Shown here in pieces: positions 1 through 46,778 of a DNA stretch of 64,000 bases. Origin of the DNA: a virus; IMG/VR virus record IMGVR_UViG_3300023276_001265; one strand, 5' to 3'. The notes under the pieces were generated by a model. That model was given only the letters and a program-made list of their open reading frames with translations, ran no database searches and was not told the DNA's origin. A program made the position numbers and the translations under genes. The number at the start of each line of letters is the position of its first letter. The stretch's first letter is position 1.

Positions 1-3000
1 TTCTACGTCCCCAACGAGAAGAATCCAGAGCGTAAGCCGATCCGGGCGTGGTTCCCGTTCGCTGATGGAACAATGGACCACACTGTCGAAGGTGGCAAGG
101 TAGTCGCGCTCCGGGCGACACTAGACCAGTTCGACACAATGACTCGCCTACGTCCAATTTGGGGACTCAAAGACGTAATCGCGATCCGGCACAACGGGAT
201 CTTCGATGACGCATTCATCTACCTATCAAGCGGTCTCGATGAAAACATCATTGTCGAGAACATCATCGCCGACAGTATGCTCGCCGACTATGTCGCCGAC
301 GAACGACGTAAGCGTTATGGATTGAAATTGCGGGTCGAACAGGTGTTCGGGCACAAGATGACCTCATATAAGGAGGCTGCGGCCGGACAGGCCTCGTTCG
401 CGTTCGCCATGAAGAAGCCCCTTGGCGTCTACGCTTGTGACGATACGGCGTGGACCTACCGTCTCTGGCGCTGGGCCATGGAGTCGATCCGGAAACAGGA
501 TCCTCCGCGAGAGCACAAGGATCAGTGGTGTTCTCCGCTAGACGATACGCCTGGAATCTACAGCGACCTGGAGAAGGTCTTCTGGAAGATTGAAATGAGA
601 ATCCAGCGGATCCTCATGGAGATGGAGATCACTGGCTGCTTCATCGATTGGGAGTGGTTGGTCGTCGTCCAAGAACGGCTGCAGAAGCAGAAGAAGACAA
701 TTGAGGAGGAGATCAAGGAGGAATACGGTTGGATGCCGAAGATTCGGTCGCCAAAGCAGACCTCAGACTTCCTCTACAACCCGGTCGACAAAGGTGGCAT
801 CGGGCTCCCGACCCAAGGTGTCGATTACAACGCGGTCACGGACCAATACGCGACCGGTGACAAGGCGATTAAGCACAGGGCGAGGGAATTCCCCGTCGTT
901 GCAAAGATCCTCAAATACAGGTCCCTAGGCGTTGTCGAGAGCTCGTTCTGTCAGAAGCTAATCGGACTGGCCCAGGCAGAGACCAGGATCTACGCACGCT
1001 TCAGGCAGACCGGCACGGTCATCGGTCGTCTGAGTTGTCTTTCCGGAATGTCAATGCTCTCTATACGCCTGAATGGGGCGAATCTAAGGCGTTTAGTCAA
1101 ACTCTCAGAACTTGGTCAGTTTATCGGATCTGATGTTAGGATCATCACTCATAAGGGTCGTGAGCGCCGCGTGTTGAATCTGTTCAACAAGGGGCCAGGC
1201 CTGATGTTTGAGGTGGTGGCGGATGACGGCAGCAAAATCAGATGCACAAGAGACCACAAATTTTTCACCAACTCCGGGTGGCGTGCTCTCAAGGACATCA
1301 AACGAGGGGACAGACTGCTTCGAGCCGAGGTATGTGAGGCTCAGGAAGCCGATAAGAGGCAGGCGGTGGGTGCTGGATCGACCGTCGTTCTTCAAGGTGT
1401 TCGTGGACGACAAGAGGCCGGTTTACAAGAAGTCGAAAATCTATGGTCTGACGGATGGGATTGCACTCACGTGCAAGGCGATCTACGGCTGGGAGATCGA
1501 TGTGTTCCGAGGCCGTTCGAGGCGACGTCCGGACTTAGACGAGATACTTCCACTTGCACCGACATGGGTGCGACGAGACAAGTGCAAAGGCTTCATACTC
1601 TCCAGGGAGTCGTTCAAGGAGATCTTCGTAGACAGCGACCTGACGCAGGAGAAGGCGAAGAAGACCTACGGGATATCTCACCAGGCCATGATCCGGGCCG
1701 TGAAGACTTACAAGGAGTTCCACGACCCACTGGCGATGAAGCACGGACGACTCCTGAGCGCGGCCAAACGGAAGGAGGAGGCGTTCTTTCCAAAGTCGGC
1801 TTTGGTGGAGGAGATGTCAGAGGGGAGATCCCCTCAAGAGATCGCGGCCAAGTTCGGCGTGGGGGAGTCGATTATTTTGATGGACATGTACCACCACGGA
1901 GTATCCGCGAACCCTCACGGAACCATGTCGTGGGTGAGCCGATTGACGGACAGCGAGTACTTGGCACTGGTCGCACTGAACCCACGAATAGGAGAGCTTC
2001 CAACGGACCCGAAGATGGCTTTCACCGAGCTGGTGGAGGCCTATCAGAGGCTGATGCAACTAGCCCACTCGGTCAAGCAGAGCGGATCGATCATGGGGGC
2101 GTTGATCGAGAGGGGGACGATCGAGAAGGATCATCTAACGTTCGCTTCAAATCGGGCGGAGATGAGGCTGTCCCGTGCGCTGACGGCGGTTGGAATCCAG
2201 CATCGGCGACTATTCCATTTCTACAAGAACTGGCAGGCCGACTTCGCCTGGATAGATCAGAAACTACTGGTCGAGGTAGATGGCGCGTGGCACCAGAAGT
2301 GTGCTGCTACCAAGGATCGGGATCAGAAGAAGACAAAGAAGGCGAAGGAGCTTGGTTACCGAGTAGTGAGGTTCACCACCAAGCAGGTCGACAAGAACCT
2401 TCCTACGGTGATTCGGGAGATCGCGTTCGAACTTGGACACGAGTTACCAGCATCACTCCAGTCAGCGTCGAAGATGTCTGGGACCTCACCGTAGAGGGGG
2501 ATCACAGTTATCTAGCTCACGGGTTTGTCAACAAAAACAGTGCGGACCCCGTCAACCTGATGAACCAGCCACGAGAAAAGGACCTGATCCGCAAGGCGTT
2601 CTGCGCTCACCTTGAAGATGACTACGACGATGATCGCAACGAGCTAACGCTGATCGATGCTGACTACGGGCAAATGGAACTGCGCATGGCAGCTCACCTC
2701 GCCCGTGAGAAGAACATGATCGAGGTCTTCTCGGCGGTTGATGGGTGTGAGGCTGGTCCCGACGGTGGTCCGTGCGAGCGATACACGTTCCACGAGTGCT
2801 TCGCCTGTCACACGTGCCAGCCTCCAATTGAGCTCCCTGACGGCACCATGTCCTGCATTAAGTGCGGGGCTACAGGAGGAGACATTGAACATCAGAAGCG
2901 GTGTCGTCACGTAGATCCTCACCAGCGAACGTCAGAGGACGTAGGCGTCCCTCGAAACCCTCTCGCTAAGTGTTTAGACGGGTCAACGCTGCTTCTGGGC

Positions 3001-4743
3001 ATGCAGCCCGGTAATGGCAAGTGTTGGATTCAACCAACGACGATTGAGGACTTGGTGGGCGATATCGAGCCCAACGAACATCGACACGTGCCTGTGACCA
3101 CCGTGACGACATCTGAGGGGCTGGCCACGGCTCACACTGCGCTCAAGCGTCACAACAAGCAGACGAAGATCATCATTACTAGACGCGCTATTGTGATTGC
3201 TACCGTCGATCATAGGTTCCAGGTGCTCGGAGAGCATGGAGCGTTAGACCCTAACACGCCGAGTTATGTGCACGTTCCTGGGCGCAGCCTTGTAGAGGCC
3301 CAAAACCTCGAAAAGGGTATGAAGCTCCCCTTCATCGATATGGGGCATGAACAATCGATGGACCCCATGTGGCACCAGACAGGTCGTCATGGTGCGCTGG
3401 AGATCAATCCGTTCACCAAGGAGGTCCAGGAGGGAGGACCGGCCACCATCGTCCTTGATGAGAAGTGGGCCTACTTTGCAGGAATCTTCGCCGGGGACGG
3501 CTGCGCGTCCGGAAACTCGTGTTCCATCTCTCACGGACATACGCCGGAATACAAGGAGTGGCGGGACACAGTTCGAGAGGCTTGTGATGCCGTAGGGCTT
3601 CCCACCTCAATGCGAGGGGACAAGCGTCAGACAGCGATCGGCTCACGCGTCGTTCGTCGCTACCTCTCTGGTCTGAGGATCTGTGAGGAACTCGGCAAGG
3701 GTGACCAGGGCGCGAAGATCATGCGTGTCCCGCCGTGGGTCCTCAGTGGCGGACCGAAGATGATGTGGTCCTACATCGCTGGCATCTTCGATACCGATGG
3801 AACGGTCGGTAAAAAGAAGGCTGGGACGGCCAGCTTCACTACGAAGTCCCCCGAATTCGCCGGTCAAATGGCCTTCATGCTTCGCTGGCTTGGGATGCCT
3901 GTCCTCTGCCAGCCAGGGTTCAACAAGACCTACGAGCGGTGGTACTACACGGTTCATGTTTTGGGAGAGGGTATTGAGCGGTTCGCTCGACACTGCCCAA
4001 TGCGGCTCAAGGAGAAGGTTGACCGGCTCCACGAGAGGGCCGCAACTATCAAGCGTAAGTGTGCACCTACTAACGATGAGGTGATTGCCGTCATTGATGG
4101 CGGCGAACGGACGGTCTACGACTTCCAGATCGACACGGAGGACCACCTCTACAATCAGGGCGGCTTGGTCGGTCACAATAATGCTAATTTCGGACTTTTG
4201 TACAGAATGGGTGCGCCAAAGTTCTGCGTGTATGCAGGGTTGTTTGATGAGGACGGCAAGCCCCGTGTCGGCTACGGACAAGAGTTGATCGAGAAGTGGC
4301 ACGCGGCTTACCCTGGCATCGCTGCTTGGCACGAGCGGGTTCTTCATCAGCTGTGCGTCGACAACTACATCGCCTACACCATTACGAGACGCAGACGTCG
4401 CCTCGACATTGAGTGGAAGAAGAACGATTACCGGGCAGGAACCCAGGCCATTCAGTTCAAGGTTTCAGGCAGCTGCCAGGACCTCATCAAGCTGGCCATG
4501 ATCAAGCTCTTCGAGGTGCGGAATCAAAAGGTCGCGAACACGCCTCCAGCTGAGTCGCGGCTCTGGAAGAAGTTCCGCTTCATGATCCAGGTCCACGACG
4601 AGTTGATCTTCGAAGGTCCGAAGGCGATGAAAGAGGAGCTCTGCCTCCTGGTCAAGGAGTGCATGGAGGGCGCAGCCAAGGGCATGCGTATTCCCTTCGT
4701 CGCTGATGCGCGGGCCGGGAGGACCTGGGATGAGCTACACTAG
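1..4743 (+). CDS. polA: Family A DNA polymerase (3'-5' exonuclease + polymerase) precursor with two inteins; 5' end outside the window
   Basis: Frame is open from base 1 (ORF track starts at internal ATG 73). ExoII HNGIFD, ExoIII YACDD, TGTVIGRLS|S, motif A DADYGQMELR, motif B AK|NANFGLLY, motif C QVHDEL. Confidence 0.95.
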   Translation, partial: FYVPNEKNPERKPIRAWFPFADGTMDHTVEGGKVVALRATLDQFDTMTRLRPIWGLKDVIAIRHNGIFDDAFIYLSSGLDENIIVENIIADSMLADYVADERRKRYGLKLRVEQVFGHKMTSYKEAAAGQASFAFAMKKPLGVYACDDTAWTYRLWRWAMESIRKQDPPREHKDQWCSPLDDTPGIYSDLEKVFWKIEMRIQRILMEMEITGCFIDWEWLVVVQERLQKQKKTIEEEIKEEYGWMPKIRSPKQTSDFLYNPVDKGGIGLPTQGVDYNAVTDQYATGDKAIKHRAREFPVVAKILKYRSLGVVESSFCQKLIGLAQAETRIYARFRQTGTVIGRLSCLSGMSMLSIRLNGANLRRLVKLSELGQFIGSDVRIITHKGRERRVLNLFNKGPGLMFEVVADDGSKIRCTRDHKFFTNSGWRALKDIKRGDRLLRAEVCEAQEADKRQAVGAGSTVVLQGVRGRQEAGLQEVENLWSDGWDCTHVQGDLRLGDRCVPRPFEATSGLRRDTSTCTDMGATRQVQRLHTLQGVVQGDLRRQRPDAGEGEEDLRDISPGHDPGREDLQGVPRPTGDEARTTPERGQTEGGGVLSKVGFGGGDVRGEIPSRDRGQVRRGGVDYFDGHVPPRSIREPSRNHVVGEPIDGQRVLGTGRTEPTNRRASNGPEDGFHRAGGGLSEADATSPLGQAERIDHGGVDREGDDREGSSNVRFKSGGDEAVPCADGGWNPASATIPFLQELAGRLRLDRSETTGRGRWRVAPEVCCYQGSGSEEDKEGEGAWLPSSEVHHQAGRQEPSYGDSGDRVRTWTRVTSITPVSVEDVWDLTVEGDHSYLAHGFVNKNSADPVNLMNQPREKDLIRKAFCAHLEDDYDDDRNELTLIDADYGQMELRMAAHLAREKNMIEVFSAVDGCEAGPDGGPCERYTFHECFACHTCQPPIELPDGTMSCIKCGATGGDIEHQKRCRHVDPHQRTSEDVGVPRNPLAKCLDGSTLLLGMQPGNGKCWIQPTTIEDLVGDIEPNEHRHVPVTTVTTSEGLATAHTALKRHNKQTKIIITRRAIVIATVDHRFQVLGEHGALDPNTPSYVHVPGRSLVEAQNLEKGMKLPFIDMGHEQSMDPMWHQTGRHGALEINPFTKEVQEGGPATIVLDEKWAYFAGIFAGDGCASGNSCSISHGHTPEYKEWRDTVREACDAVGLPTSMRGDKRQTAIGSRVVRRYLSGLRICEELGKGDQGAKIMRVPPWVLSGGPKMMWSYIAGIFDTDGTVGKKKAGTASFTTKSPEFAGQMAFMLRWLGMPVLCQPGFNKTYERWYYTVHVLGEGIERFARHCPMRLKEKVDRLHERAATIKRKCAPTNDEVIAVIDGGERTVYDFQIDTEDHLYNQGGLVGHNNANFGLLYRMGAPKFCVYAGLFDEDGKPRVGYGQELIEKWHAAYPGIAAWHERVLHQLCVDNYIAYTITRRRRRLDIEWKKNDYRAGTQAIQFKVSGSCQDLIKLAMIKLFEVRNQKVANTPPAESRLWKKFRFMIQVHDELIFEGPKAMKEELCLLVKECMEGAAKGMRIPFVADARAGRTWDELH
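1036..2538 (+). mobile_element. Intein 1 in polA (501 aa); in-frame centre has no recognisable domain, endonuclease is in another frame
   Basis: GRLS|CLSG at 1036; block B CTRDHKF; block F/G VWDLTVEGDHSYLAHGFVNKN|S ending at 2538; removal restores GRLSSADPVNLMNQP. Confidence 0.92.
1208..2494 (+). CDS. Vsr/DUF559-like PD-(D/E)XK endonuclease with HTH motifs, nested in the +1 frame inside intein 1 (true start uncertain)
   Basis: C-terminus EMRLSRAL..GI...QADFAW....LVEVDGAWH......RD......GYRVVRF; upstream HTH-like segments (TQEKAKKTYGIS, SPQEIAAKFGVG). Confidence 0.85.
   Translation: MRWWRMTAAKSDAQETTNFSPTPGGVLSRTSNEGTDCFEPRYVRLRKPIRGRRWVLDRPSFFKVFVDDKRPVYKKSKIYGLTDGIALTCKAIYGWEIDVFRGRSRRRPDLDEILPLAPTWVRRDKCKGFILSRESFKEIFVDSDLTQEKAKKTYGISHQAMIRAVKTYKEFHDPLAMKHGRLLSAAKRKEEAFFPKSALVEEMSEGRSPQEIAAKFGVGESIILMDMYHHGVSANPHGTMSWVSRLTDSEYLALVALNPRIGELPTDPKMAFTELVEAYQRLMQLAHSVKQSGSIMGALIERGTIEKDHLTFASNRAEMRLSRALTAVGIQHRRLFHFYKNWQADFAWIDQKLLVEVDGAWHQKCAATKDRDQKKTKKAKELGYRVVRFTTKQVDKNLPTVIREIAFELGHELPASLQSASKMSGTSP
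2971..4179 (+). mobile_element. Intein 2 in polA motif B (403 aa) with LAGLIDADG endonuclease; +1 residue is Asn
   Basis: LAK|CLDGST at 2971; block B ATVDHRF; LAGLIDADG motifs YFAGIFAGDG and YIAGIFDTDG; end VYDFQI...LVGHN|NANFG. Confidence 0.92.
4717..4742 (+). repeat. 26-bp direct repeat, copy 1 (polA 3' end)
   Basis: GGGAGGACCTGGGATGAGCTACACTA, identical to 5729-5754. Confidence 0.9.
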
Positions 4744-6015: not shown

Positions 6016-6192
6016 ATGCGTCTTAAGTTCAAGGAAGTCCGAGTTATTGTCGATGGGTGCGATCACTACAAGCACGGCATCGAGCCCATTCCGGGGAAGA
6101 TTGAGTTGGACGGGATCTATCGCTGTAAGCGATGCAAAGCCGTCTGTCTGAACTACTGGGCACTACACGACGACATCATGAAACGAGGATAG
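6016..6192 (+). CDS. Small hypothetical protein (CxH/CxxC)
   Basis: Tightly packed ORF; ATG 6016 is in frame with the tracked ORF 5869-6192. Confidence 0.45.
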   Translation: MRLKFKEVRVIVDGCDHYKHGIEPIPGKIELDGIYRCKRCKAVCLNYWALHDDIMKRG

Positions 6193-6193
6193 C

Positions 6194-6400
6194 GTGACGA
6201 TCGATGAGGGGCTGGACGATCCGCATATTATGCGTTTAGTCTATGCCGCCCACGCTGCGTGGTGCAAAGAGCTCAGGCAGCAGGGTAGAAAGGTGTCCTC
6301 TCATTACGAGAGTATTCCTGCCCATCCAAGAGAGTGCTTGCGACTAAACGTCGCATCCGTTCTCGCGGTCCTAAACTTGGAGACGAGCCCTGATGCGTAA
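6194..6400 (+). CDS. Hypothetical protein
   Basis: GAGG SD, packed between neighbours. Confidence 0.45.
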   Translation: MTIDEGLDDPHIMRLVYAAHAAWCKELRQQGRKVSSHYESIPAHPRECLRLNVASVLAVLNLETSPDA

Positions 6401-14974: not shown

Positions 14975-15070
14975 GGAAAAATAGCTTTTAGTCAACTGCG
15001 GCCAAAACCGCTTGCCCGATGACGAGCTTCAAGGCCGGTTAACAGCAGCCCACGGCCTGGTGACCGTAAA
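14975..15070 (-). ncRNA. Putative omegaRNA 3' portion and guide of the TnpB (5' boundary unknown)
   Basis: Minus strand: AGGCCG...CGGCCT stem, GAAGC...GGGCAAGCGG-TTTTGG-CCGC-AGTTGAC ending at 14991, then 16 nt TAAAAGCTATTTTTCC up to the convergent gene's stop. Confidence 0.55.
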
Positions 15071-16144
15071 TTTGTTCCTGACATTGAGCGCGGCATTCTT
15101 GCTCATCGGACTTTCGTTGCCACACGAATCGCAGAGGAAGGTGTGTTTTGTGATGCTCCCAGAAGCTCCACAAAGCGAGCACCTCTTCTCGTTACCGGAT
15201 ACGTTCACGTAATAAACCGGTATCGCCGCAGCCGCAGCCTTCTCTTCAATCCTACGACGAAGCACTTCATAGAAGTGCGGCCTCATCGATGGCTTGCTTC
15301 TTTTCCTCTTCGAAGGTGGAGGGATGCGAAGGTCCTCGATGACGAGGATTGATCCGCTTCCAACCCACTCAACGAGTCGGTTAGCTGCTGCGTGGCAAAA
15401 AGTCCTAGTTCGCATGTGACGCCGTCTGCTTAGCCGTTTGAGGACTCGACGCACAGAACGCGTCTCAAGTCCATCTGCCTTACGCACAGCCAGTCGCCGC
15501 TCAAGTCTTCTCTTTGTTTTTCGGCTTGTCTCCTCCATTACATTCTGAGCAACGGTGACGATTCGGAGAGATTTCCCCTCGGCGCTTACCGCTGCTACTT
15601 CATTCTTACTCCCTACTGCAACGCCAGCAGGAAGGGTTCCTTCTCGTTTTGATTCTTTAAGAGTCACGGACACGGTCGCTACGAGTCGTCCCCTTTTAAG
15701 GGAGACCGCGAGTGTGTCGAAGGACTTCACGTTTTTATAGTCAGCCTCGAACCGGGCTGGAATGCTGCAAGGTATGTCCTTACGGCCCGCAATTGTCCAA
15801 ATTCTGATCGTCTCTTTACGGGGTGGGCAGGCATCGCGCTTTGCCTTGCCGATCAAGAATAGGGCGCGTGGCTTACTGAAGTGAATCGGCCCATATATCC
15901 TCCGGTTTCTCCTCCGAGCGCGTGAGTATTCAGATGCCACCGATCGAATAGCAGTGCATGTGAGCTGAGATTTCAGAGAGCCTTTCACTTTTGCGTAGCT
16001 GAGCTGATGCATATCTACTGCGGAAAGCGCGGTTCCGTCTTCAAACGCAATCTCAGACACGCGCTCTTGGATGAGTCTGAATGACTCAATTGTTGCCATA
16101 AGATCAGCGTCGTTGGCAATCCTAAGTGGAAGCACTTTCTGCAT
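15029..16144 (-). CDS. tnpB: TnpB-family protein with substituted RuvC catalytic residues (TldR-like)
   Basis: TnpB-type N-terminus (Y...LKSQL...AIRSVA..Y); RuvC-I GVAVG instead of GVDLG; RuvC-II IEDL; CSLCG/CDSCG zinc finger; RuvC-III SKNAALNV instead of DxNAAxNI; no tnpA nearby. Confidence 0.85.
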   Translation of the reverse strand: MQKVLPLRIANDADLMATIESFRLIQERVSEIAFEDGTALSAVDMHQLSYAKVKGSLKSQLTCTAIRSVASEYSRARRRNRRIYGPIHFSKPRALFLIGKAKRDACPPRKETIRIWTIAGRKDIPCSIPARFEADYKNVKSFDTLAVSLKRGRLVATVSVTLKESKREGTLPAGVAVGSKNEVAAVSAEGKSLRIVTVAQNVMEETSRKTKRRLERRLAVRKADGLETRSVRRVLKRLSRRRHMRTRTFCHAAANRLVEWVGSGSILVIEDLRIPPPSKRKRSKPSMRPHFYEVLRRRIEEKAAAAAIPVYYVNVSGNEKRCSLCGASGSITKHTFLCDSCGNESPMSKNAALNVRNKFTVTRPWAAVNRP

Positions 16145-29273: not shown

Positions 29274-29553
29274 GCCCTCTCATACTAGAACCAAGGTCTA
29301 TTTCATAGAAAATACTGAGACGGGCCGCATCAAAGTGGGGTTCACGACAAGCTCGGTTAACGCTCGCGTAGTTGCGCTTCAGACGGGATCTGATTGCCAG
29401 TTACGACTTCTTGGTTCCGTTATCGCGGATCAAGCGGCGGGGACAACAGAGCTCCAGCTTCACAGGCTGTTCAGTAGGTGGCACCACCGTGGCGAGTGGT
29501 TTACTAGAGAGATCCTCCCGATGGTCGTGGAACTGCTTTCGGAACCAACTTAA
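29272..29553 (+). CDS. GIY-YIG protein, T5orf172/MUG113-like
   Basis: VYFI......IKVGFT......R...LQTG...E..LH..F.....GEWF. Confidence 0.8.
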   Translation: MPSHTRTKVYFIENTETGRIKVGFTTSSVNARVVALQTGSDCQLRLLGSVIADQAAGTTELQLHRLFSRWHHRGEWFTREILPMVVELLSEPT

Positions 29554-30055
29554 CGTATACGCTCCGCTTCGACCGGCGAATGGTGACTATCTTTGCGTCC
29601 ACCAATCTGTATACGAGCCACTCCACTACATCATGTGGAACGCGTAGATCCCTAGAGAGCGCCGGGATTGATGACTGATTAAGTTGGATCGCACCGAGTA
29701 GGTCTTGGGCTACATAACCGTCGATAGGAGGTGTCGTAGTTATGATCTCCTCCTCGCGTGCTTCCTCCCGACGTTGTATCTTGGCTGCATAGGGCATCAT
29801 TACTACATGATCGAGACAGTAAGGTTTGTTTCCGACGGTGCGGCCCGTGCAATCTGGAATCTCACATGGGGGACCATAGCAACGAGCAGACCCGCGACGA
29901 CGCCTCGCCGGTTTGTTAGACGATCTGCGAAGAGCTTCGATGAACAAAAGTCGCCTGTCTGTTGCCAACGCCCTTGGCCCCCTGCTCGCGGTACTTACCT
30001 CTGATGCGCCCTTTAATACCTTACAGCCATAGTCCATAAACCGCATGAATCTCAT
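29504..30055 (-). CDS. Hypothetical protein with Cys motif and winged-HTH-like C-terminus (start uncertain)
   Basis: CEIPDC...YCLDH; SIPALSRDLRVP. Confidence 0.45.
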   Translation of the reverse strand: MRFMRFMDYGCKVLKGASEVSTASRGPRALATDRRLLFIEALRRSSNKPARRRRGSARCYGPPCEIPDCTGRTVGNKPYCLDHVVMMPYAAKIQRREEAREEEIITTTPPIDGYVAQDLLGAIQLNQSSIPALSRDLRVPHDVVEWLVYRLVDAKIVTIRRSKRSVYVKLVPKAVPRPSGGSL

Positions 30056-30569
30056 TTACACGCATAGGTCTGGTGGTCGTATTTGGCAGGGGGATAAGAA
30101 CGACGTTAAAGCCCTCCTTCAGCGCCCTAATAAAGAAGTTGATCTAATCGGTCTATTTGCGCAGGAGTTTCAGCCGACTGATCCAAATAATCATTACGAA
30201 CTACTTAGGGGCGGGTACGACGATAATGACGCTGCAAATGATGATGAGTTGAAAAAAGTTGGAGAATTAGCCAGTCATTTCTCGGATAGATTCGCGGTTG
30301 CTCTACGCGAGGGGAAAGGGTGCGTGTCGTCGTGCAACATGGGCCTCAATCGCTCTGGGTTGGTGACGGCTCTTACGTTGATGAAAGCGACCCACATGGG
30401 ACCTGAAGAGGCGATCAGTCTTGTGAGGCGGAATAGGACTCCCCAACAAGGGTTGAGCGCCCTCTGCAACAGAAAATTCGTGGAAATGATCCGCAAACTT
30501 GGCGCTACAAGCGGGTCTAAGTCGACCTGGACCAAGTGGAACAGGGAATCTCCGAAAGCGCGGCGGTAA
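30045..30569 (+). CDS. Dual-specificity/tyrosine phosphatase family protein
   Basis: Catalytic CX5R loop SCNMGLNRSG; AISLVR..R...LCN..F. Confidence 0.85.
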   Translation: MNLIYTHRSGGRIWQGDKNDVKALLQRPNKEVDLIGLFAQEFQPTDPNNHYELLRGGYDDNDAANDDELKKVGELASHFSDRFAVALREGKGCVSSCNMGLNRSGLVTALTLMKATHMGPEEAISLVRRNRTPQQGLSALCNRKFVEMIRKLGATSGSKSTWTKWNRESPKARR

Positions 30570-30645
30570 TATGGACCGACGCATCCGATTCTGTTAGACT
30601 CAGTTGTGGTGATGCACAACACGAGCATCTGTCACAGGAGACGAC

Positions 30646-31479
30646 ATGGCCAGAGCAGTTGAGAAGCAGCGCAAGCGGCGCCGCAGCTTGGATTCCAAGC
30701 AGCGGACCGAAGCGGTGCGTCTCTATGAGCTCGGCCTATCTGGTCCTAAAATCGCTCTGCAGTTTGATGTAGGAGTTGACCAGGTCTACAAGGTACTCCA
30801 TACCGCAGGCGTGTGCCGCGATGTGACTGGCTGTCGAAACCGGCGATGGACGGACGATCAAGAAGACCAGATCATTGATGCTTACCTGGAGGGCGAGACT
30901 CAGGTCGGATTAGCCCGAACCTGGAATACAAGCCAGTCAGCGATCTCCTCGATCCTGAAAAGGACGGGAACCCAAACGCGCTACAAAAAGCGAGAGCTTT
31001 CTGCGACTGAGCTGCAGAGCGTTAAGAATCGGTATGAGGCCGGAGAGACGGCAGGCGCTATTGCTGAAGACTTTGACGTCTTCCACAAGCGCATTCTCGT
31101 CGAGCTCAGGCGTATGGGAGCGAAGATTAGGAAACGCCCTGGCTTCCACACGTGGACTGATGACTGCGGTCGCGCCTTCACATTCAAGTCTCTCTGGGAG
31201 CTACGAGTTGCCCAGCATTTGGACCTGCTTGGGAAGTCTTGGGACTACGAAAAAGCTAAATACACAGTCATCGTAGATGATGGTGTCGCCACCTACACGC
31301 CAGACTTTTGGATCTACGCAACGTGCGGAGAGCTGGAGGCTGTTGTGGACGTCAAGGGCCGATGGTGGCCCACTGGGCAGCAGGAGAAAATCGAACTCTT
31401 CTGCCAACAGTATCCCCACATTCCGTTCGAGATTTGGGACGCTCGCGTCCTAAAGGGATCAGGCGTTCGCCTTTTTTAA
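30646..31479 (+). CDS. HTH-repeat plus PD-(D/E)XK (TnsA-N-like) endonuclease; starts with the tail tube's first five codons
   Basis: Three HTH units; FKSLWE..VA..LD....WDYE...YTPDFW...VDVKG; 5' end ATGGCCAGAGCAGTTGA versus tube ATGGCTAGAGCAGTTGA. Confidence 0.85.
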   Translation: MARAVEKQRKRRRSLDSKQRTEAVRLYELGLSGPKIALQFDVGVDQVYKVLHTAGVCRDVTGCRNRRWTDDQEDQIIDAYLEGETQVGLARTWNTSQSAISSILKRTGTQTRYKKRELSATELQSVKNRYEAGETAGAIAEDFDVFHKRILVELRRMGAKIRKRPGFHTWTDDCGRAFTFKSLWELRVAQHLDLLGKSWDYEKAKYTVIVDDGVATYTPDFWIYATCGELEAVVDVKGRWWPTGQQEKIELFCQQYPHIPFEIWDARVLKGSGVRLF

Positions 31480-31504
31480 GGTATGAACAGGAGCATAAAC
31501 CCTT

Positions 31505-31987
31505 ATGGCTAGAGCAGTTGACACAGACCTCTATCACAACTTCCGGTTTCACGTTGTCGACCCGGCGGGTCAGAACCTGGACCCAGTTGCAGGCTTCCGG
31601 ACCGCCAGCATCCCCGACCTCACCGTCGACATGGCGGAGTACCGTGAGGGCGTGTTCAAGTACACCCGAAAGTATCCTGGCATTCCGAAGGTCGGTGATT
31701 GCTCCCTGAGCAAGGGCGTGGTCAAGAAGGACTCCGACTTCCTCCTCTGGATCTTCAAGTGCATCAACGGCGGTGAGACCTACCGTTCTGACATCACGAT
31801 CCAGGAATACCACATTGCCGACGAATGGGGCATTGACGGTAGTCCCTCGAAGGTCATTCAGCTCAAGGAGGTCTTCCCGACCTCTGTCAAGCCGACCGGT
31901 GACAAGGACGCTTCGAGCTCCGACGTCGCCATCCAGGAGATCACCCTCGCTGTCGAGGAGATAGTCGTGGAACTCGTTGTCAACTAG
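31505..31987 (+). CDS. Tail tube protein (T4 gp19-like)
   Basis: D...NFRFHV; AGF; EYREG....RKYPG; LSKG; P.......DASSSDVAIQEITL. Confidence 0.93.
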   Translation: MARAVDTDLYHNFRFHVVDPAGQNLDPVAGFRTASIPDLTVDMAEYREGVFKYTRKYPGIPKVGDCSLSKGVVKKDSDFLLWIFKCINGGETYRSDITIQEYHIADEWGIDGSPSKVIQLKEVFPTSVKPTGDKDASSSDVAIQEITLAVEEIVVELVVN

Positions 31988-32004
31988 AGACTTAGGTTTC
32001 TACC

Positions 32005-32060
32005 TTGATTCGGGCATAGTTGCGGGCTAGTCTGGGATACAAACCCAGGAGCCCGCAATT
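32005..32060 (+). promoter_or_regulatory. Sigma70-like promoter inside an RBS-sequestering hairpin of the GIY-YIG gene
   Basis: TTGATT(32005)-N17-TAGTCT(32028); stems TTGCGGGCT/AGCCCGCAA and CTGGG/CCCAG enclose AGGAG. Confidence 0.6.
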
Positions 32061-32062
32061 CC

Positions 32063-33190
32063 ATGTACAGAGTCGTAGTTATCAAGAATCCAATTGATGG
32101 CGCAGTAATTTACGTTGGCCGAGAGAAGCAGTCTGGAAACGGCCGATACGCGCTCAACAGGCTTTTGTCGGATACAAGGCGTGGCGGTAACAGCAAACGT
32201 CATTTAGTGGTCAGACGCTTGGTCGAACAAGGCCTTAGTTTGTGCTACCTAGCTATCGCCGAGAATCTGCACGTAAATGCAGCTAAGAAGCTGGTGAACG
32301 AGCTACGGGAACAGCACGGAGTTCAGCTCTCCCGTTACGGGTCCACTCGGCCTCGTGTCCACCAGAAAACCGATCCCAACTCGCCATATTTGGACAAAGC
32401 AGAGGTCTACTACGTCTACGAACTGATCCGGCCAGACACCGACAATGTGTTCTACGTGGGCAAGGGGTCAGATCGTCAGCAACCACGAGTTGACGCTCAC
32501 ATCCGGAAGGCTAAGTCCGGGAAGAAGGGGCACAAGTTCGCGATCATCCGCAAGCTACTTGCGGCCGGTCTCAAGCCCGTTGAGCATAGGATCGCCGAGA
32601 ACCTCACCGAGTCCAAAGCGCTCAAGCTCGAAGTCGAGCACATTAGTTCAATAGGATTGAACCTTCTTGCAAACGATGCCTCTGGTGGTCAGACGGCGCC
32701 CACTGGCGATGACCACTGGACGCGTAGGCATCCGGAGAAGGTTCTACGAGGTGAGAGCCATCCCATGCGGAGGGATCCTAGTCGAGCCGCACGCGGGCCG
32801 CAAAACGGCGCATACACTAAGCCTGAGTGCCGGGTTCGCGGCGCCAAGCACGGGATGTCGAAGCTGGATTACCAGCAGGTCACGAGGATCCGTGCGCGGT
32901 ATCAAGAGGGATTGGACTCAGGGAAGCGAGTAACCGGGAAGCGCCTGGCCGCAGATTATGGCGTGACTCCTACCCAGATATCTCGTGTACTTCGTGGTGA
33001 GAGTTGGGACCTGCCGAATCTCATCAAGAAGCACGGCAACGCGAAGCTCACTAAAGAGCAGATCGCGTCTATTCCAGCGAAGCTCGCTGCAGGGTTGAAT
33101 CAGAAGCAGCTGGCAGAAGAACTAGGCGTGAGTCATAGCCTCATCAACTACTACGCCAAGAAGATAGTCGTGGAACTGGTCGTCAACTAG
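32063..33190 (+). CDS. GIY-YIG (LEM-3-like) endonuclease with C-terminal HTHs; ends in the tail tube's last eight codons
   Basis: YYVYELIRP....FYVGKG....R...H...E...I...L.N, with a degenerate N-terminal copy; two HTHs; C-terminus IVVELVVN*. Confidence 0.85.
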   Translation: MYRVVVIKNPIDGAVIYVGREKQSGNGRYALNRLLSDTRRGGNSKRHLVVRRLVEQGLSLCYLAIAENLHVNAAKKLVNELREQHGVQLSRYGSTRPRVHQKTDPNSPYLDKAEVYYVYELIRPDTDNVFYVGKGSDRQQPRVDAHIRKAKSGKKGHKFAIIRKLLAAGLKPVEHRIAENLTESKALKLEVEHISSIGLNLLANDASGGQTAPTGDDHWTRRHPEKVLRGESHPMRRDPSRAARGPQNGAYTKPECRVRGAKHGMSKLDYQQVTRIRARYQEGLDSGKRVTGKRLAADYGVTPTQISRVLRGESWDLPNLIKKHGNAKLTKEQIASIPAKLAAGLNQKQLAEELGVSHSLINYYAKKIVVELVVN

Positions 33191-33220
33191 ACGCCCCGTA
33201 TCTAGACCCAATTGGAAGAT

Positions 33221-33246
33221 AGCGCCCCTAGTGGGCGCTCTTTTTC
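33221..33246 (+). terminator. Intrinsic terminator
   Basis: AGCGCCC-CTAGT-GGGCGCT-CTTTTT. Confidence 0.75.
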
Positions 33247-33247
33247 A

Positions 33248-33454
33248 TCAGTCAGACTTGGTGTGTCGACGTCGCTTTCCGCTGCTCACACGCTCAAGAC
33301 GTGAGGCCATTCCGGGAATGGCGTCAGCCAACTTCTTAGCTAGGCTCACCTCAGCCGCGTCGAGGCCTGTTCCCCCTTCCAGGCACTTGATGATGACCTT
33401 GAGCTCCCTATCGCTCAGGTCCAGAGTCCATACGAAGTTGCGCTGGAGGTGCAT
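33248..33454 (-). CDS. Hypothetical protein
   Basis: 68-aa ORF converging on the terminator. Confidence 0.4.
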   Translation of the reverse strand: MHLQRNFVWTLDLSDRELKVIIKCLEGGTGLDAAEVSLAKKLADAIPGMASRLERVSSGKRRRHTKSD

Positions 33455-33538
33455 CGTGGGCGCCTATCGGGTAATCTGAGATCTCACCCGGCGGTGCCGG
33501 AATTAGCATCAGTTTACAGCAAGAGAAGACCAGACCGT

Positions 33539-33931
33539 ATGGAGAACGGACTCAAGTACCACGGATCGTGGGACAATGCCTGCCCGAGCGGCGTCTCCTA
33601 CACCGAGCACGTTCAATCTCTTCCTCTGATGTTGGTCCAGATGTACTGGCAGGCTGGAGGGACTGGAATTTTTGCGGTCCATCCGATGATCGCGTCAATG
33701 CTGAGCGTGGTAGATCCGGCCCGCTTCGGGTCGTTCAAGTTTCACGAGGCCCAAGAATGGCCGGTCGAGGTCGGGGCCATAGGTGGTATCTCGGTGTGGG
33801 CTGACGTCTCTATTGGTGGAGCCGAGATCCTGATAGTTGATGAGCCTGGGTCCCTGCAGCCTCACGCGAGGGTAACGCTCTCTAACTTCATCGACGTTCC
33901 AGAGGTTCTGGACAGAATGGCGCGTCTCTGA
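33539..33931 (+). CDS. Hypothetical protein
   Basis: ATG 33539 is in frame with the tracked ORF 33449-33931. Confidence 0.5.
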   Translation: MENGLKYHGSWDNACPSGVSYTEHVQSLPLMLVQMYWQAGGTGIFAVHPMIASMLSVVDPARFGSFKFHEAQEWPVEVGAIGGISVWADVSIGGAEILIVDEPGSLQPHARVTLSNFIDVPEVLDRMARL

Positions 33932-33983
33932 GCGGGCGAATCTGATAGACTCATTGATGTGATGCACACCGGAGGTTAACCCC

Positions 33984-34556
33984 GTGGCCAGAGCGCTCAG
34001 CACCGATCCCCTACAGAACTTCTCCTATTACCTGCTAGACATTCCAGTCGCGGCAAGCCCTCCAGTAGCGTTCCCATTCAAAATCGGCCAGGGACTTTCA
34101 GAGGGACAGCTACTGAGCTTTAAGTCCATCTCAATTCCATCCGTATCAATGGGGATGAAGACGATTCAGGAGGGAAACTGGCCGTATGCACACCAAATTC
34201 CTACAGGACAGATCACAACAGGAGATACGACTATCGAGGCTGCTGTGACCCCGCTCTCAATGGACTTCTATCTGTGGTTCTTCCAGGCAGTGTGGGGAAC
34301 AGGGGCGCCCCGGCGTAACTTCACTGTGGTCCACACGAGAGCTGACAAGCTCATCCCCAGGCGGGTCGTCAATCTCTTTGGGTGCGTCCCTAAAAGCTGG
34401 CAGCCGTCTTCTAACTTTGATGCCAGTTCCAGCGAGCTATCGATCGAGAGCTTAACCGTGTCTGTGCACCAGGTAGAGGTTCTCCCAGGGATCCCAGGAC
34501 CCCCCAGTGTTCCAAATGCTCCAGTGGTCCCAGGGGTCCCAGGAGCTTCTATTTGA
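33984..34556 (+). CDS. Second gp19-like tail tube paralog
   Basis: MARALSTDPLQNFSY; IQEGNW; P..W.....DASSSELSIE; Pro/Gly tail. Confidence 0.8.
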   Translation: MARALSTDPLQNFSYYLLDIPVAASPPVAFPFKIGQGLSEGQLLSFKSISIPSVSMGMKTIQEGNWPYAHQIPTGQITTGDTTIEAAVTPLSMDFYLWFFQAVWGTGAPRRNFTVVHTRADKLIPRRVVNLFGCVPKSWQPSSNFDASSSELSIESLTVSVHQVEVLPGIPGPPSVPNAPVVPGVPGASI

Positions 34557-34606
34557 TACGCTCTTTTTGGCCTGAAAGTGTTAATCTGATGCACAGAGGA
34601 AGTCAC

Positions 34607-34876
34607 ATGAGAGCACTACGAAATTCCATCTTCGCCATCGGGCTGGCCCTGTCCACCGGCTGCTGCGCTACCGTAGACCTGATCCGGGCCGACTACACGA
34701 AGGCTGACCGAGCTACCTTCGATGCAGTCGCTCCCGCCTACGAGGCTTACCTCGACGGGGACACGACGCTCGACAAGGACGCGAAGAAGCGAGGTAAGCG
34801 GACTATCACCACCTGGCGCCTCCGCCTGGAGCAAGCTGAAGCTCCCGTGCTTCCTGCTGATGGCGAAGGAGAGTAG
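34607..34876 (+). CDS. Putative small lipoprotein
   Basis: MRALRNSIFAIGLALSTGC lipobox-like signal. Confidence 0.6.
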   Translation: MRALRNSIFAIGLALSTGCCATVDLIRADYTKADRATFDAVAPAYEAYLDGDTTLDKDAKKRGKRTITTWRLRLEQAEAPVLPADGEGE

Positions 34877-34878
34877 CC

Positions 34879-35238
34879 GTGGCCGAACTCACAGGTAGCC
34901 TTGAAGACCTCGCGAAGGATCTCGGCGGTAAGGTCCTCGATCAGGTTAAGGACGACTTCGGTGATGCCTGGGACAGCGTCAAGGATGAGGTCAAGGACAT
35001 CCTCGCTGACGTAGCCAAGGATGCGGGGCGTCTTGCAGTCAAGAAGCTCCAGGGCGAGGACGTCTCTGAGGCCGAGAAGCACATCAACGCGCAGCTCCTC
35101 AATCTGAAGGTCGCAGGTGAGATCCTCGCGGTCCGCACCTTCTGGGAATCCTTCGGCAAGGTCATGGAAGTGATCGGAACTGGCCTCGGTGCCATCGCCA
35201 AGGCTGGGATTAAGACGCTCCTAGGCGGACTGGGATAG
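34879..35238 (+). CDS. Helical hypothetical protein with amphipathic C-terminus
   Basis: GGAG SD and GTG; directly follows the lipoprotein. Confidence 0.6.
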   Translation: MAELTGSLEDLAKDLGGKVLDQVKDDFGDAWDSVKDEVKDILADVAKDAGRLAVKKLQGEDVSEAEKHINAQLLNLKVAGEILAVRTFWESFGKVMEVIGTGLGAIAKAGIKTLLGGLG

Positions 35239-35286
35239 ATATGCCACTAACCCAGGAATTTCCTGGGTTTTAGTGGTCCATCTCCG

Positions 35287-35325
35287 TTGACTCGCCCTAG
35301 TGATGCATATAGGATGACCGCATCA
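35287..35325 (+). promoter_or_regulatory. Sigma70-like promoter overlapped by inverted TGATGC boxes
   Basis: TTGACT(35287)-N17-TAGGAT(35310); TGATGC at 35301 and GCATCA at 35320. Confidence 0.55.
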
Positions 35326-45664: not shown

Positions 45665-46090
45665 TTACTTCTGTTCTTCGGACCTTGCGACGAGCCAGTA
45701 AACCTCTCCCGTTTTGGGATCCTTCTTGAGCTGTCGTCCTACGACGAGGCCGTAGTCCTCGCGCAGCTTGGTGTTCGCGTCGTTGACCTCGGTCCGCTTT
45801 GTCTCCAGAGCCTTCAGGTCGTTGTCGTGGACCTTCTGACGAAGCGCGATGATCAGCTGATCCTTCTTGATGATGAGCTGTTCCTGCTCAAGGAGCTTCT
45901 GCCGGAGCTCGCAGTTGTCCGCACGAGCCTCATGTAGCTGGCCAGCCTCCCACGCAGCATCGGTAGCAGGAACCCTCTCGAATTCTGGAGTCGGCTGAGA
46001 GGGCTTACTGACCCCTCCGAGTCCCTCGTTGTTGGCTGCGCCATTGATTCGATTCTTCACTGATGTCCTCTTGCGCTTGCGCTTCGACAT
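45665..46090 (-). CDS. Coiled-coil protein, likely paralog of ORF 27730
   Basis: Heptads; C-terminal QLKKDPKTGEVYW. Confidence 0.65.
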   Translation of the reverse strand: MSKRKRKRTSVKNRINGAANNEGLGGVSKPSQPTPEFERVPATDAAWEAGQLHEARADNCELRQKLLEQEQLIIKKDQLIIALRQKVHDNDLKALETKRTEVNDANTKLREDYGLVVGRQLKKDPKTGEVYWLVARSEEQK

Positions 46091-46130: not shown

Positions 46131-46168
46131 TGCGGGTGAGTCTACCATCTGCGGGTGAGTCTACCATC
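46131..46168. repeat. Perfect 19-bp tandem duplication
   Basis: TGCGGGTGAGTCTACCATC twice. Confidence 0.9.
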
Positions 46169-46172
46169 CACA

Positions 46173-46778
46173 TCATACTCCAAAGCTCGCCCGTGCTGCG
46201 AGACACTCCTCACTTCCCTTCTCGAAGATAACGCACACCATTGGGCGTTTGCTGTAGATGCCGCACTTGCACGACTTGCCAATCGACCCGCTGAGAGCGG
46301 CGCAAACTGTGTGACCATCGGCGTTTTTCTTGGTCTTGATGTATGGGTGACCACCGTCTCTGACAATCAGCGTCTTACGCATTACCGAGGGGATATTGGC
46401 CACATCCTCTGGCTCAAGCGCCGCGTGTGTGTCTTTCCGCTGGTCCCTGGGACCGCAGCATGCCCCGCACTTCCTGCAGTCCGCATCATCTGGCAGAGGC
46501 GGGTATTGCTTCTTCTGCCTCTTCTCCGGCTCGCGGAACACAGTCGGCTTCGCGGCTCCGATCACCGCCGACAGAGGAGGCGGAGGAGGTGCTTGTGATG
46601 CCTGTGGCAGCTTGACCGGGGTTCGCTTTACGGACCGGGTCTGCTCAGCCTTAGCGAGCATCCTGGTGGCCTGGGCCCTGAAATCAGACATGGACGAGAA
46701 GGTCAGAAGTTCAGGACTTCCCCCTTCTCGTCTCATGACCACCCAGTCGTCGCCAATTCCTTCGAGCAGAACAGCCAT
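46173..46778 (-). CDS. YkgJ/CxxCxxCC family protein with N-terminal extension
   Basis: CRKCGACC...CAALSG.IG..C.C.IY..RP.VC..F. Confidence 0.85.
   Translation of the reverse strand: MAVLLEGIGDDWVVMRREGGSPELLTFSSMSDFRAQATRMLAKAEQTRSVKRTPVKLPQASQAPPPPPLSAVIGAAKPTVFREPEKRQKKQYPPLPDDADCRKCGACCGPRDQRKDTHAALEPEDVANIPSVMRKTLIVRDGGHPYIKTKKNADGHTVCAALSGSIGKSCKCGIYSKRPMVCVIFEKGSEECLAARASFGV

Follow-up and report, generated by a model that had tools for sequence, protein, structure and literature searches.

A putative homing-endonuclease cassette set in frame behind the first codons of a phage tail tube gene

Background

Two neighbouring genes of a virus genome, one for a predicted nuclease and the other for a tail tube protein, begin with almost the same 17 nucleotides. 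This arrangement raises the question of which of the two copies is the tube gene's own beginning and how the nuclease gene came to share it. A first-pass annotation of the sequence had interpreted the locus as a 5'-end capture, in which the nuclease took over the promoter, ribosome-binding site and first five codons of the tube gene. Here, the locus is analyzed by comparison with relatives that either carry or lack the nuclease gene.

Results and discussion

Locus and comparison set

The sequence analyzed, a stretch of 64,000 nt referred to here as the window, comes from an IMG/VR virus record of 134.7 kb with an estimated completeness of approximately one half. Because a blastn comparison of bp 29500-35300 with 50,697 deposited phage genomes returned no match, all comparisons were drawn from IMG/VR and metagenome contigs. 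A scan based on a tube-protein alignment identified 46 loci among the metagenome contigs and 17 among the viral contigs. Between bp 30045 and 34556 of the window, four ORFs, all on the plus strand, lie before a further ORF and a second tube gene:

30045-30569, plus strand: dual-specificity-phosphatase-like gene
30646-31479, plus strand: nuclease ORF, 277 aa, with three helix-turn-helix (HTH) modules (residues 17-53, 70-106 and 120-156) and a C-terminal PD-(D/E)XK nuclease domain (residues ~168-271, bp 31147-31458)
31505-31987, plus strand: tail tube gene, 160 aa, intact (PF06841)
32063-33190, plus strand: gene for a GIY-YIG and HTH protein (Pfam)
33449-33931: further ORF, 5' of the tube paralog
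33984-34556, plus strand: second gp19-type tube paralog (PF06841)

Both tube ORFs are gp19-type proteins: they match the Pfam family of the T4 gp19 tail tube (PF06841) over the whole domain and above the curated cut-off of 28.2 bits, with scores of 63.2 bits (E-value: 2.9e-17) for the tube protein and 56.1 bits (E-value: 4.4e-15) for its paralog. The starts of the nuclease and tube genes form a direct repeat, with an upstream copy (U, bp 30646-30662) and a downstream copy (D, bp 31505-31521) that are spaced 859 nt apart and identical at 16 of 17 positions, exactly as first annotated. When up to three mismatches are allowed, this 17-mer occurs only at these two places in the 64 kb, against an expectation of 0.18. 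The features of this junction and of the surrounding transcription unit are as follows:

30588-30618, plus strand: native tube leader motif (CTG-N-TAGACTCA, a short spacer and GTGATGCA), a candidate promoter with a core that is invariant in 14 orthologous leaders
30636-30645, plus strand: native tube ribosome-binding region (AGGAG and 5 nt), now serving the nuclease ORF; identical or nearly so directly before the tube ATG in relatives with an empty site
30646-30662, plus strand: U copy, the original first 17 nt of the tube gene, which are now nuclease codons 1-5 and two bases of codon 6
30663-31521, plus strand: inserted cassette of 859 bp, comprising the nuclease body, stop codon, replacement ribosome site and replacement tube start; absent from the empty-site loci, such as L029 and L031
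31480-31504, plus strand: cassette-borne spacer, in which an AGGAG (bp 31489-31493) precedes the tube ATG by 11 nt; conserved among the cassettes of different lineages and still present in the scarred locus L022
31505-31521, plus strand: D copy, a substitute for the first 17 nt of the tube gene that came in with the cassette; near-identical among cassettes
33221-33239, plus strand: terminator-like hairpin, the tube gene's native terminator, now 3' of the GIY-YIG gene; directly after the tube stop codon in L029
33946-33968, plus strand: leader motif before the tube paralog, also kept before the paralog in L009

The native start of the tube gene

Seven loci of the same lineage as the window lack the nuclease gene (L029, L031, L033, L037/L038, L073, L034 and L041). 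All seven have the same organization: the phosphatase-like gene is followed by a shared leader, an AGGAG sequence and, directly thereafter, an intact tube gene. This leader comprises an invariant CTG-N-TAGACTCA core, a GATG-containing box, a variable stretch and finally AGGAG plus five bases. The core is invariant across the 14 orthologous leaders, regardless of whether a nuclease gene is present. The closest of the empty relatives is L029, which has a tube gene 96% identical and a flanking gene 70% identical to those of the window. A blastn alignment of L029 with the window covers bp 30000-30662, breaks exactly at this position and resumes at bp 31505-31992, such that 17 nt of L029 (bp 1518-1534) match both copies of the repeat. 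Taken together, the empty-site leaders and the L029 alignment identify bp 30588-30662 as the native 5' end of the tube gene (leader, ribosome site and initial 17 nt), while the break in the alignment identifies bp 30663-31521 as an insertion.

These results bear directly on the first-pass annotation, which had proposed that bp 30596-30662 were the original 5' end of the tube gene and had suggested comparing tube leaders among relatives. That proposal holds: the leader found directly before the tube gene in the seven nuclease-less relatives is of the bp 30596 type rather than of the type of the bp 31480-31504 spacer. The interpretation of the locus as a 5'-end capture is therefore supported with respect to its outcome, as the tube gene's ribosome site, ATG and first five codons now serve the nuclease. 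Its account of the event needs to be modified, however, since the nuclease is better described as having arrived in a mobile cassette, which inserts in frame and supplies a replacement start, than as having taken a start from the tube gene.

The nuclease protein

Pfam analysis of the nuclease ORF identifies HTH_7 (E-value: 1.7e-12). Matches of the single sequence to nuclease families (Phage_endo_I and DUF1064) are weak and fall below the gathering threshold (21.4 vs. 29.1 bits). A profile built from 17 homologs matches T7 endonuclease I chains with an E-value of 8.8e-7, and PHROG endonuclease/resolvase families match the nuclease with E-values of 1e-8 to 1e-9. The signature E...PD...(D/E)VK is found across the 17 homologs: D220 and K237 are invariant, E185 is nearly so and residue 235 is either D or E. 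An AF2 model (pLDDT 84) predicts three modules of three helices each and an alpha/beta domain, with a pLDDT of approximately 90 over residues 168-271. Foldseek comparison of this domain retrieves TnsA (probability 1.0), TT1808 (0.98) and the catalytic domain of I-Bth0305I (0.96), all with E-values above 1e-3, and both the model and these matches show an alpha/beta fold of the restriction-endonuclease type. Based on these results, the domain is filed in the PD-(D/E)XK superfamily (T7 endonuclease I-like, PF05367 / DUF1064), with nuclease activity predicted from sequence and model.

The nuclease frame runs unbroken from the tube gene's native ATG and contains no other in-frame ATG before residue 157, and the element has neither a ribosome site nor a start of its own. 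Residues 1-10, which are located ahead of the first HTH module and belong to none of the folded domains, form the only low-confidence stretch of the model (pLDDT <50). A restriction-endonuclease-like catalytic fold and the E...PD...(D/E)XK signature are also found in the EDxHD enzyme I-Bth0305I and in T7 endonuclease I, and I-Ssp6803I is a homing endonuclease of the PD-(D/E)XK type. The known PD-(D/E)XK homing enzymes and T7 endonuclease I are intron-encoded proteins or junction resolvases, and to our knowledge none of them has a triple HTH array.

Shared starts among nuclease homologs

The in-frame layout of the window recurs in five other loci (L030/L070, L032, L009, which lies on a 358.7-kb contig, L011 and L010), and in ten related loci the first residues of the nuclease follow those of the tube gene located just downstream. 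The nuclease begins with MARAV in the window, L030, L032, L009 and L011, with MARSV in L010 and with MARAAS in L065. The start is MARAAAT in L025, in which the sheath and tube genes flank the element (L023 is an element-less sister of this locus). In L016, the element precedes the tube paralog, and the nuclease begins with VARSF and has a GTG start, as does the paralog. The fusion junction is retained in homologs with as little as 53% identity. Other loci retain only a trace of it: in L002 and L005, 27 nt of the tube start (nine codons and then a stop) are left in front of a homologous nuclease with a start of its own, and L024 carries a decayed remnant without an ATG.

A tblastn search of all retrieved loci with the nuclease showed that homologs adjoin tube genes in many further contigs, and in these loci the element invariably occupies the same site, the start of a tube gene, in the same orientation. 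Larger, free-standing homologs with unrelated N-termini are encoded upstream of the tube gene in L021, L026, L027, L072 and as the first gene of L010, which indicates that the shared start was acquired from the target and is not a signature of the family. Homologs that begin with MARAV or MARSV at unrelated loci would have argued against a captured start, and none was found; all such homologs are located at tube-gene starts. A homolog with 37% identity at another locus (P0008) adjoins a baseplate-like gene and begins with MPRSL.

Mobility and decay

The distribution of the nuclease gene does not follow that of its surroundings. With respect to the flanking phosphatase-like gene, the nearest relative of each carrier is a non-carrier (window and L029, 70% identity; L032 and L031, 69%; L011 and L033, 64%). 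The window and L032 nevertheless share 87% identity in the nuclease and only 54% in the flanking gene. A sliding comparison of these two loci gives an identity of 27-58% in the leader and 98% in the first 100 nt of the insert, with the jump located exactly at the start of the insert.

Degenerate copies are also found. L025 has an internal deletion of half of the nuclease domain, and the nuclease ORFs of L065 and L061 are truncated. L022 and L042 are scars, in which only the last nuclease codons and the cassette's ribosome site and start are retained. A remnant or scar is also located upstream of the tube paralog in L005.

The element is thus present or absent at a single site, with the target gene intact in both states, and its distribution is at odds with the flanking genes and includes degenerate copies of the kind produced by a cycle of invasion, decay and loss. 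Because this polymorphism, the decayed copies and scars and the mismatch with the flanking genes are those of a free-standing homing endonuclease, we consider it very probable from the sequence comparisons that bp 30663-31521 are a free-standing homing-endonuclease cassette, inserted in frame into the tube gene behind its initial 17 nt.

A domesticated phage gene was considered as an alternative. In that case, the nuclease would be fixed and no longer spreading, and it would act as a regulator of the tube operon or as a weapon against co-infecting relatives. The ORF is intact and has its catalytic residues, the fusion junction is kept even in distant homologs, conservation is unusually high over the last 70 nt of the cassette and three HTH modules would also suit a DNA-binding regulator. 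We nevertheless regard domestication as unlikely for three reasons. First, the gene is polymorphic, and the nearest relatives by flanking genes lack it. Second, many copies are decayed or deleted. Third, the similarity pattern of the nucleases disagrees with that of the flanking genes. Furthermore, the exclusion of a competitor's markers is itself a phenotype of homing endonucleases, so a weapon of this kind overlaps with the reading of the insert as a homing cassette.

The imported downstream copy

The two copies of the repeat have different affinities. The U copies resemble the starts of local relatives without the nuclease. Among carriers, the D copies show hardly any differences, and neither do the 25-nt spacer and the final 40 nt of the nuclease gene, even where the nucleases themselves are only 62-65% identical. 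This is particularly clear in L011 and L025, where U differs from its own D at 5-6 synonymous positions of approximately 20, and where D resembles the D copies of other cassettes and not its own U. As D differs from U at synonymous sites and travels with the cassette, the repeat is not a target-site duplication. The cassette therefore carries a substitute for the end of the gene that it occupies, while the displaced original, which matches the empty sites, remains alongside. With the AGGAG and start copy provided by the cassette, the tube ORF is restored and whole.

These observations also argue against a transposon, in which the 859-bp insert would be flanked by a target-site duplication of 17 nt. 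Direct repeats do flank the insert, a homolog (P0005) is named 'transposase' by JGI, the HTH modules are similar to those of Tc3/mariner transposases and the nuclease fold is similar to that of TnsA. In addition to the synonymous differences between the repeat copies, however, the length of the repeat varies from 17 to 27 nt among loci, no terminal inverted repeats were found at the insert borders, no DDE or other transposase domain was detected with Pfam and the element is always in one orientation at the one site. A transposon is thus a highly improbable explanation. An intron-encoded homing endonuclease was also considered and rejected: an Rfam scan of the whole window detected neither introns nor RNA families of any other kind, which means that no known ribozyme splices out the insert, and the nuclease stop codon is followed by the tube ATG after only 25 nt.

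These 25 nt, which lie between the nuclease stop codon (ending at bp 31479) and the tube ATG (bp 31505), form the short spacer with an AGGAG that the first-pass annotation had noted. The AGGAG is 11 nt from the ATG in this cassette leader, compared to 5 nt in the native leader, and the spacer does not resemble those found natively in nuclease-less relatives. A spacer of this type is found in only one locus without the nuclease gene, L022. As L022 retains codons for the nuclease C-terminus, its spacer is a deletion scar and not a native leader, and in its sister loci the sheath gene is followed by short spacers of unrelated sequence. We give almost no credence to the reverse direction of events, in which the 25-nt spacer would be native and the upstream leader and MARAV would have been copied from the tube paralog or by local duplication, since, although the upstream motif matches the paralog's leader and L022 has the spacer without the gene, seven nuclease-less relatives have the upstream-type leader directly before the tube gene, the L022 spacer is a scar with unlike sisters and no scar-free relative was found with the bp 31480-31504 spacer directly after the phosphatase-like gene.

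Transcription and translation signals

The bipartite pattern of the native leader, TAGACTCA followed after 5-6 nt by GTGATGCACA, occurs exactly twice in the window, at bp 30595 and 33946, where no occurrence is expected by chance. The first-pass annotation had matched the nuclease leader to that of the tube paralog, and the pattern is indeed confined to these two places; the second copy ends 15 nt before the GTG start of the paralog. Looser copies of the motif are found upstream of other genes in the same genome. A scan for sigma-70 promoters detected none at bp 30595, and its sole match (bp 35287) falls on one of the looser copies. From its conservation and position, the leader motif is a candidate promoter, though not one of the sigma-70 type. 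A terminator scan detected nothing terminator-like between bp 30595 and 33221, which we count in favour of a single transcription unit. In folding predictions, neither the native leader (z -0.9) nor the cassette junction (z -0.4) was more stable than shuffled sequences; control of translation by a hairpin is therefore not proposed.

Other parasites of the tube gene

The tube gene is also occupied at its other end. The GIY-YIG ORF (bp 32063-33190) encodes a second, unrelated homing endonuclease and ends on the displaced original last eight codons and stop of the tube gene. A 33-nt repeat (bp 31956-31988 and 33159-33191, 91% identity) spans the tube C-terminus and the end of the GIY-YIG gene, and the last eight codons of the GIY-YIG ORF are identical to those of the tube C-terminus. 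Since bp 1953-2005 of L029 align to both copies of this repeat, L029 represents an empty site for the GIY-YIG insertion as well. All four combinations of the PD-(D/E)XK and GIY-YIG elements occur among relatives.

In other relatives, group I introns (RF00028) without ORFs are found at three positions within the first 17 codons of the tube gene, 10-30 nt from the nuclease insertion point. A nuclease homolog or its remnant is always located just upstream in these relatives, and this pairing is observed in L002, L005, L024 and L040. The pairing of a free-standing nuclease with a nearby ORF-less intron is known as collaborative homing (PMC2988022; PMC6083498).

Proposed mechanism

By analogy with intronless homing of the T4 type (PMC2988022) and with the WHO elements of yeasts (PMC7282813), we infer that the cassette spreads by cutting and repair in mixed infections. 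Expression of the nuclease would depend on the native signals of the tube gene (leader, ribosome site, ATG and first five codons), and the conserved leader motif would drive a transcript that covers both genes. Judging from this layout, the nuclease would be produced with the timing and abundance of a major virion protein, as had originally been suggested. During co-infection, it would cut tube alleles without the nuclease near their start, and the break would then be repaired from the carrier genome, with homology arms provided by the leader and first 17 nt on the left and by the tube gene on the right.

The cut is probably located within the first 35 nt or so of the tube gene. The tube sequence of carriers is uniform only to about +24, which suggests that the obligatorily co-converted tract is short and that the cut lies within approximately the first 35 nt. 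The carrier itself would be spared because neither copy of the repeat keeps a full-length site: U lacks the tube body, and D lacks the native leader. Given three HTH modules and a nuclease domain, it is plausible that the recognition site is longer than the 17-nt repeat; its splitting in carriers would explain their immunity. Downstream of +24, no fixed differences between the tube alleles of carriers and empty sites were observed, and the differences upstream of it are limited to the replaced leader and a Thr7 codon that is nearly fixed. These two are thus the candidate immunity differences.

Relationship to known systems

The arrangement of the cassette works like a mirror image, at the 5' end, of two systems that have been described at the 3' ends of genes. 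The first is that of the WHO elements of Torulaspora and Lachancea yeasts (Coughlan et al. 2020, PMC7282813; Osborne et al. 2026, bioRxiv 10.64898/2026.08.13.744650). These also combine an endonuclease gene with a substitute piece of the host gene, such that the host gene is whole, the displaced original stays alongside as a duplicate and this duplicate acts as a homology arm in double-strand-break repair. In some lineages, an intron is located at the inferred cleavage site, comparable to the group I introns near the insertion point in relatives of the window. WHO elements differ in that they replace the 3' half (~400 bp) of a yeast nuclear gene, whereas the element here replaces a ribosome site and 5-9 codons at the 5' end of a phage gene. 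They encode a LAGLIDADG/intein-like nuclease with a zinc finger in place of a PD-(D/E)XK domain with HTH modules. In addition, the fragment displaced by a WHO element decays, while the one displaced here is reused as the nuclease's own start.

The second system is that of the mobile endonuclease ORFs (mORFs) of fungal mitochondria that bear the C-terminus of a foreign gene, which are found in Allomyces atp6 and in Glomus atp6, atp9, cox2 and nad3 (Beaudet et al. 2013, PMC3630166). In these, an endonuclease ORF is likewise in phase with the host gene and the end of the gene is duplicated. The native copy matches close relatives and the imported copy diverges at synonymous sites, as do U and D in L011 and L025. 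The mORFs differ in their location at 3' ends, in organelles, and in their LAGLIDADG or GIY-YIG enzymes. Because the nuclease described here is a PD-(D/E)XK protein and acts at the 5' end, the cassette is an analogue of the WHO elements and mORFs and not a member of either group. The nearest published hint of a 5' version is a passing remark on the duplication of the atp9 N-terminus in fungal mitochondria (PMC7487136), and a literature search of limited coverage found no description of a 5' gene-start layout in phages.

Among phage elements, the Seg and Mob endonucleases of T4-like phages (Edgell et al. 2010, PMC2988022) and F-CphI (PMC6083498) are also polymorphic, free-standing and located beside a conserved target. 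They often lack a translation-initiation region of their own and rely on neighbouring signals, and some are paired with an ORF-less intron. T4 Seg and Mob genes lie between genes or overlap the end of the upstream gene, however, and the site that is cut can be located hundreds of bp from them. In contrast, the nuclease here is located inside the coding start of its target, to which it is fused in frame and for which a replacement start is provided. The features specific to this case are the PD-(D/E)XK/HTH family, the specialization on both tube paralogs, a complete allele series and the occupation of one transcription unit from both ends.

Conclusions

We propose, with about even chances of being correct, that the triple-HTH PD-(D/E)XK proteins are an undescribed homing family that is specialized on the first codons of both tail-tube paralogs. 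Its members would be natural 'home-and-rescue' cassettes, free of expression signals, that insert behind the start of their target and supply a substitute start. If so, the promoter-to-terminator unit of an abundant virion gene would, with the group I introns and the GIY-YIG gene, be parasitized from both ends, and the set of loci would preserve each stage from the empty site to a collaborating nuclease and intron. For annotation, the locus provides a simple rule: where a nuclease gene and the gene that follows it begin with the same codons, the nuclease gene should be read as an insertion and not as a paralog. The natural series of empty, occupied, decayed and scarred alleles is suited to the study of target recognition by nucleases with HTH arrays, and the design of the cassette parallels that of engineered cut-and-rescue gene drives. 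For the biology of these phages, the arrangement suggests that a selfish nuclease can occupy an essential, conserved virion gene without an intron, an intein or a promoter, ribosome site or start codon of its own. By replacing the beginning of the gene and reusing the original, it would extend the short list of strategies by which homing elements avoid harm to their hosts, which comprises introns, inteins and end replacement of the WHO/mORF type.

Nuclease homologs at other tube gene starts

In locus L016, a related metagenomic contig, it is the start of the tube paralog rather than that of the first tube gene that is occupied by a homolog of the nuclease (bp 2826-3700, 39% identical). This homolog is joined in frame to the GTG and first five codons of the tube paralog and is followed by a recoded copy of the paralog start. 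L005 carries a remnant at the same place (bp 6103-6372). In L010 (bp 751-3225), a single tube gene is preceded by two nuclease homologs in tandem: one is 446 aa long, has its own start and bears an HTH extension at the C-terminus, and the other is 295 aa long and fused in frame. L039 is a relative without the nuclease, in which approximately 300 nt (bp 1944-2242) separate the phosphatase-like gene from the tube gene, and the spacer ahead of the tube ATG is similar to the cassette-type spacer at the L016 paralog. This stretch may be another scar.

Group I introns and the GIY-YIG insertion

In five relatives, the tube gene is interrupted by homologous, ORF-less group I introns (RF00028):

L002 3689-4000, group I intron
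L005 3688-4000, group I intron
L042 2175-2500, group I intron
L024 2676-2995, group I intron
L040 2182-2500, group I intron

Three different positions are used (inside codon 10, at the boundary of codons 11/12 and at that of codons 16/17), and the exon sequence is alike at the two sites preceded by a CAT codon. In every case, a nuclease homolog or the remnant of one lies directly upstream of the intron.

The 3' end of the tube gene carries a separate insertion, for which L029, the closest relative lacking the nuclease gene, provides the empty site:

31956-31988, substitute tube 3' end supplied by the GIY-YIG insertion
32063-33190, GIY-YIG/HTH endonuclease gene, inserted ahead of the last 8 tube codons
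33159-33191, displaced original tube codons and stop, now the end of the GIY-YIG/HTH gene
33221-33239, native terminator hairpin of the tube gene, downstream of the GIY-YIG/HTH gene

Farther downstream, the stretch separating the GIY-YIG gene from the tube paralog holds a 160-aa ORF (33449-33931), which has no match in Pfam or PHROG and is kept at the equivalent place in relatives (L002, L031 and L009), at times in two copies.

Recurrent sequences upstream of genes

A 19-nt unit containing TAGACTCA lies immediately upstream of the minus-strand gene at 45665-46090:

46137-46175, minus strand, tandem direct repeat of the unit

A loose motif, TCTG-N-TAGA[C/A]T[C/G] followed after 3-6 nt by TGATGC, is repeated upstream of several window genes, including 15029-16144 and a 547-aa gene (61292-62935):

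9398, 30595, 33946 and 35287, plus strand, loose motif
16156, 40664 and 62978, minus strand, loose motif

The genome contains 24 matches to the loose motif, compared with approximately 6 in shuffled sequences, and the motif may represent a phage-specific promoter.
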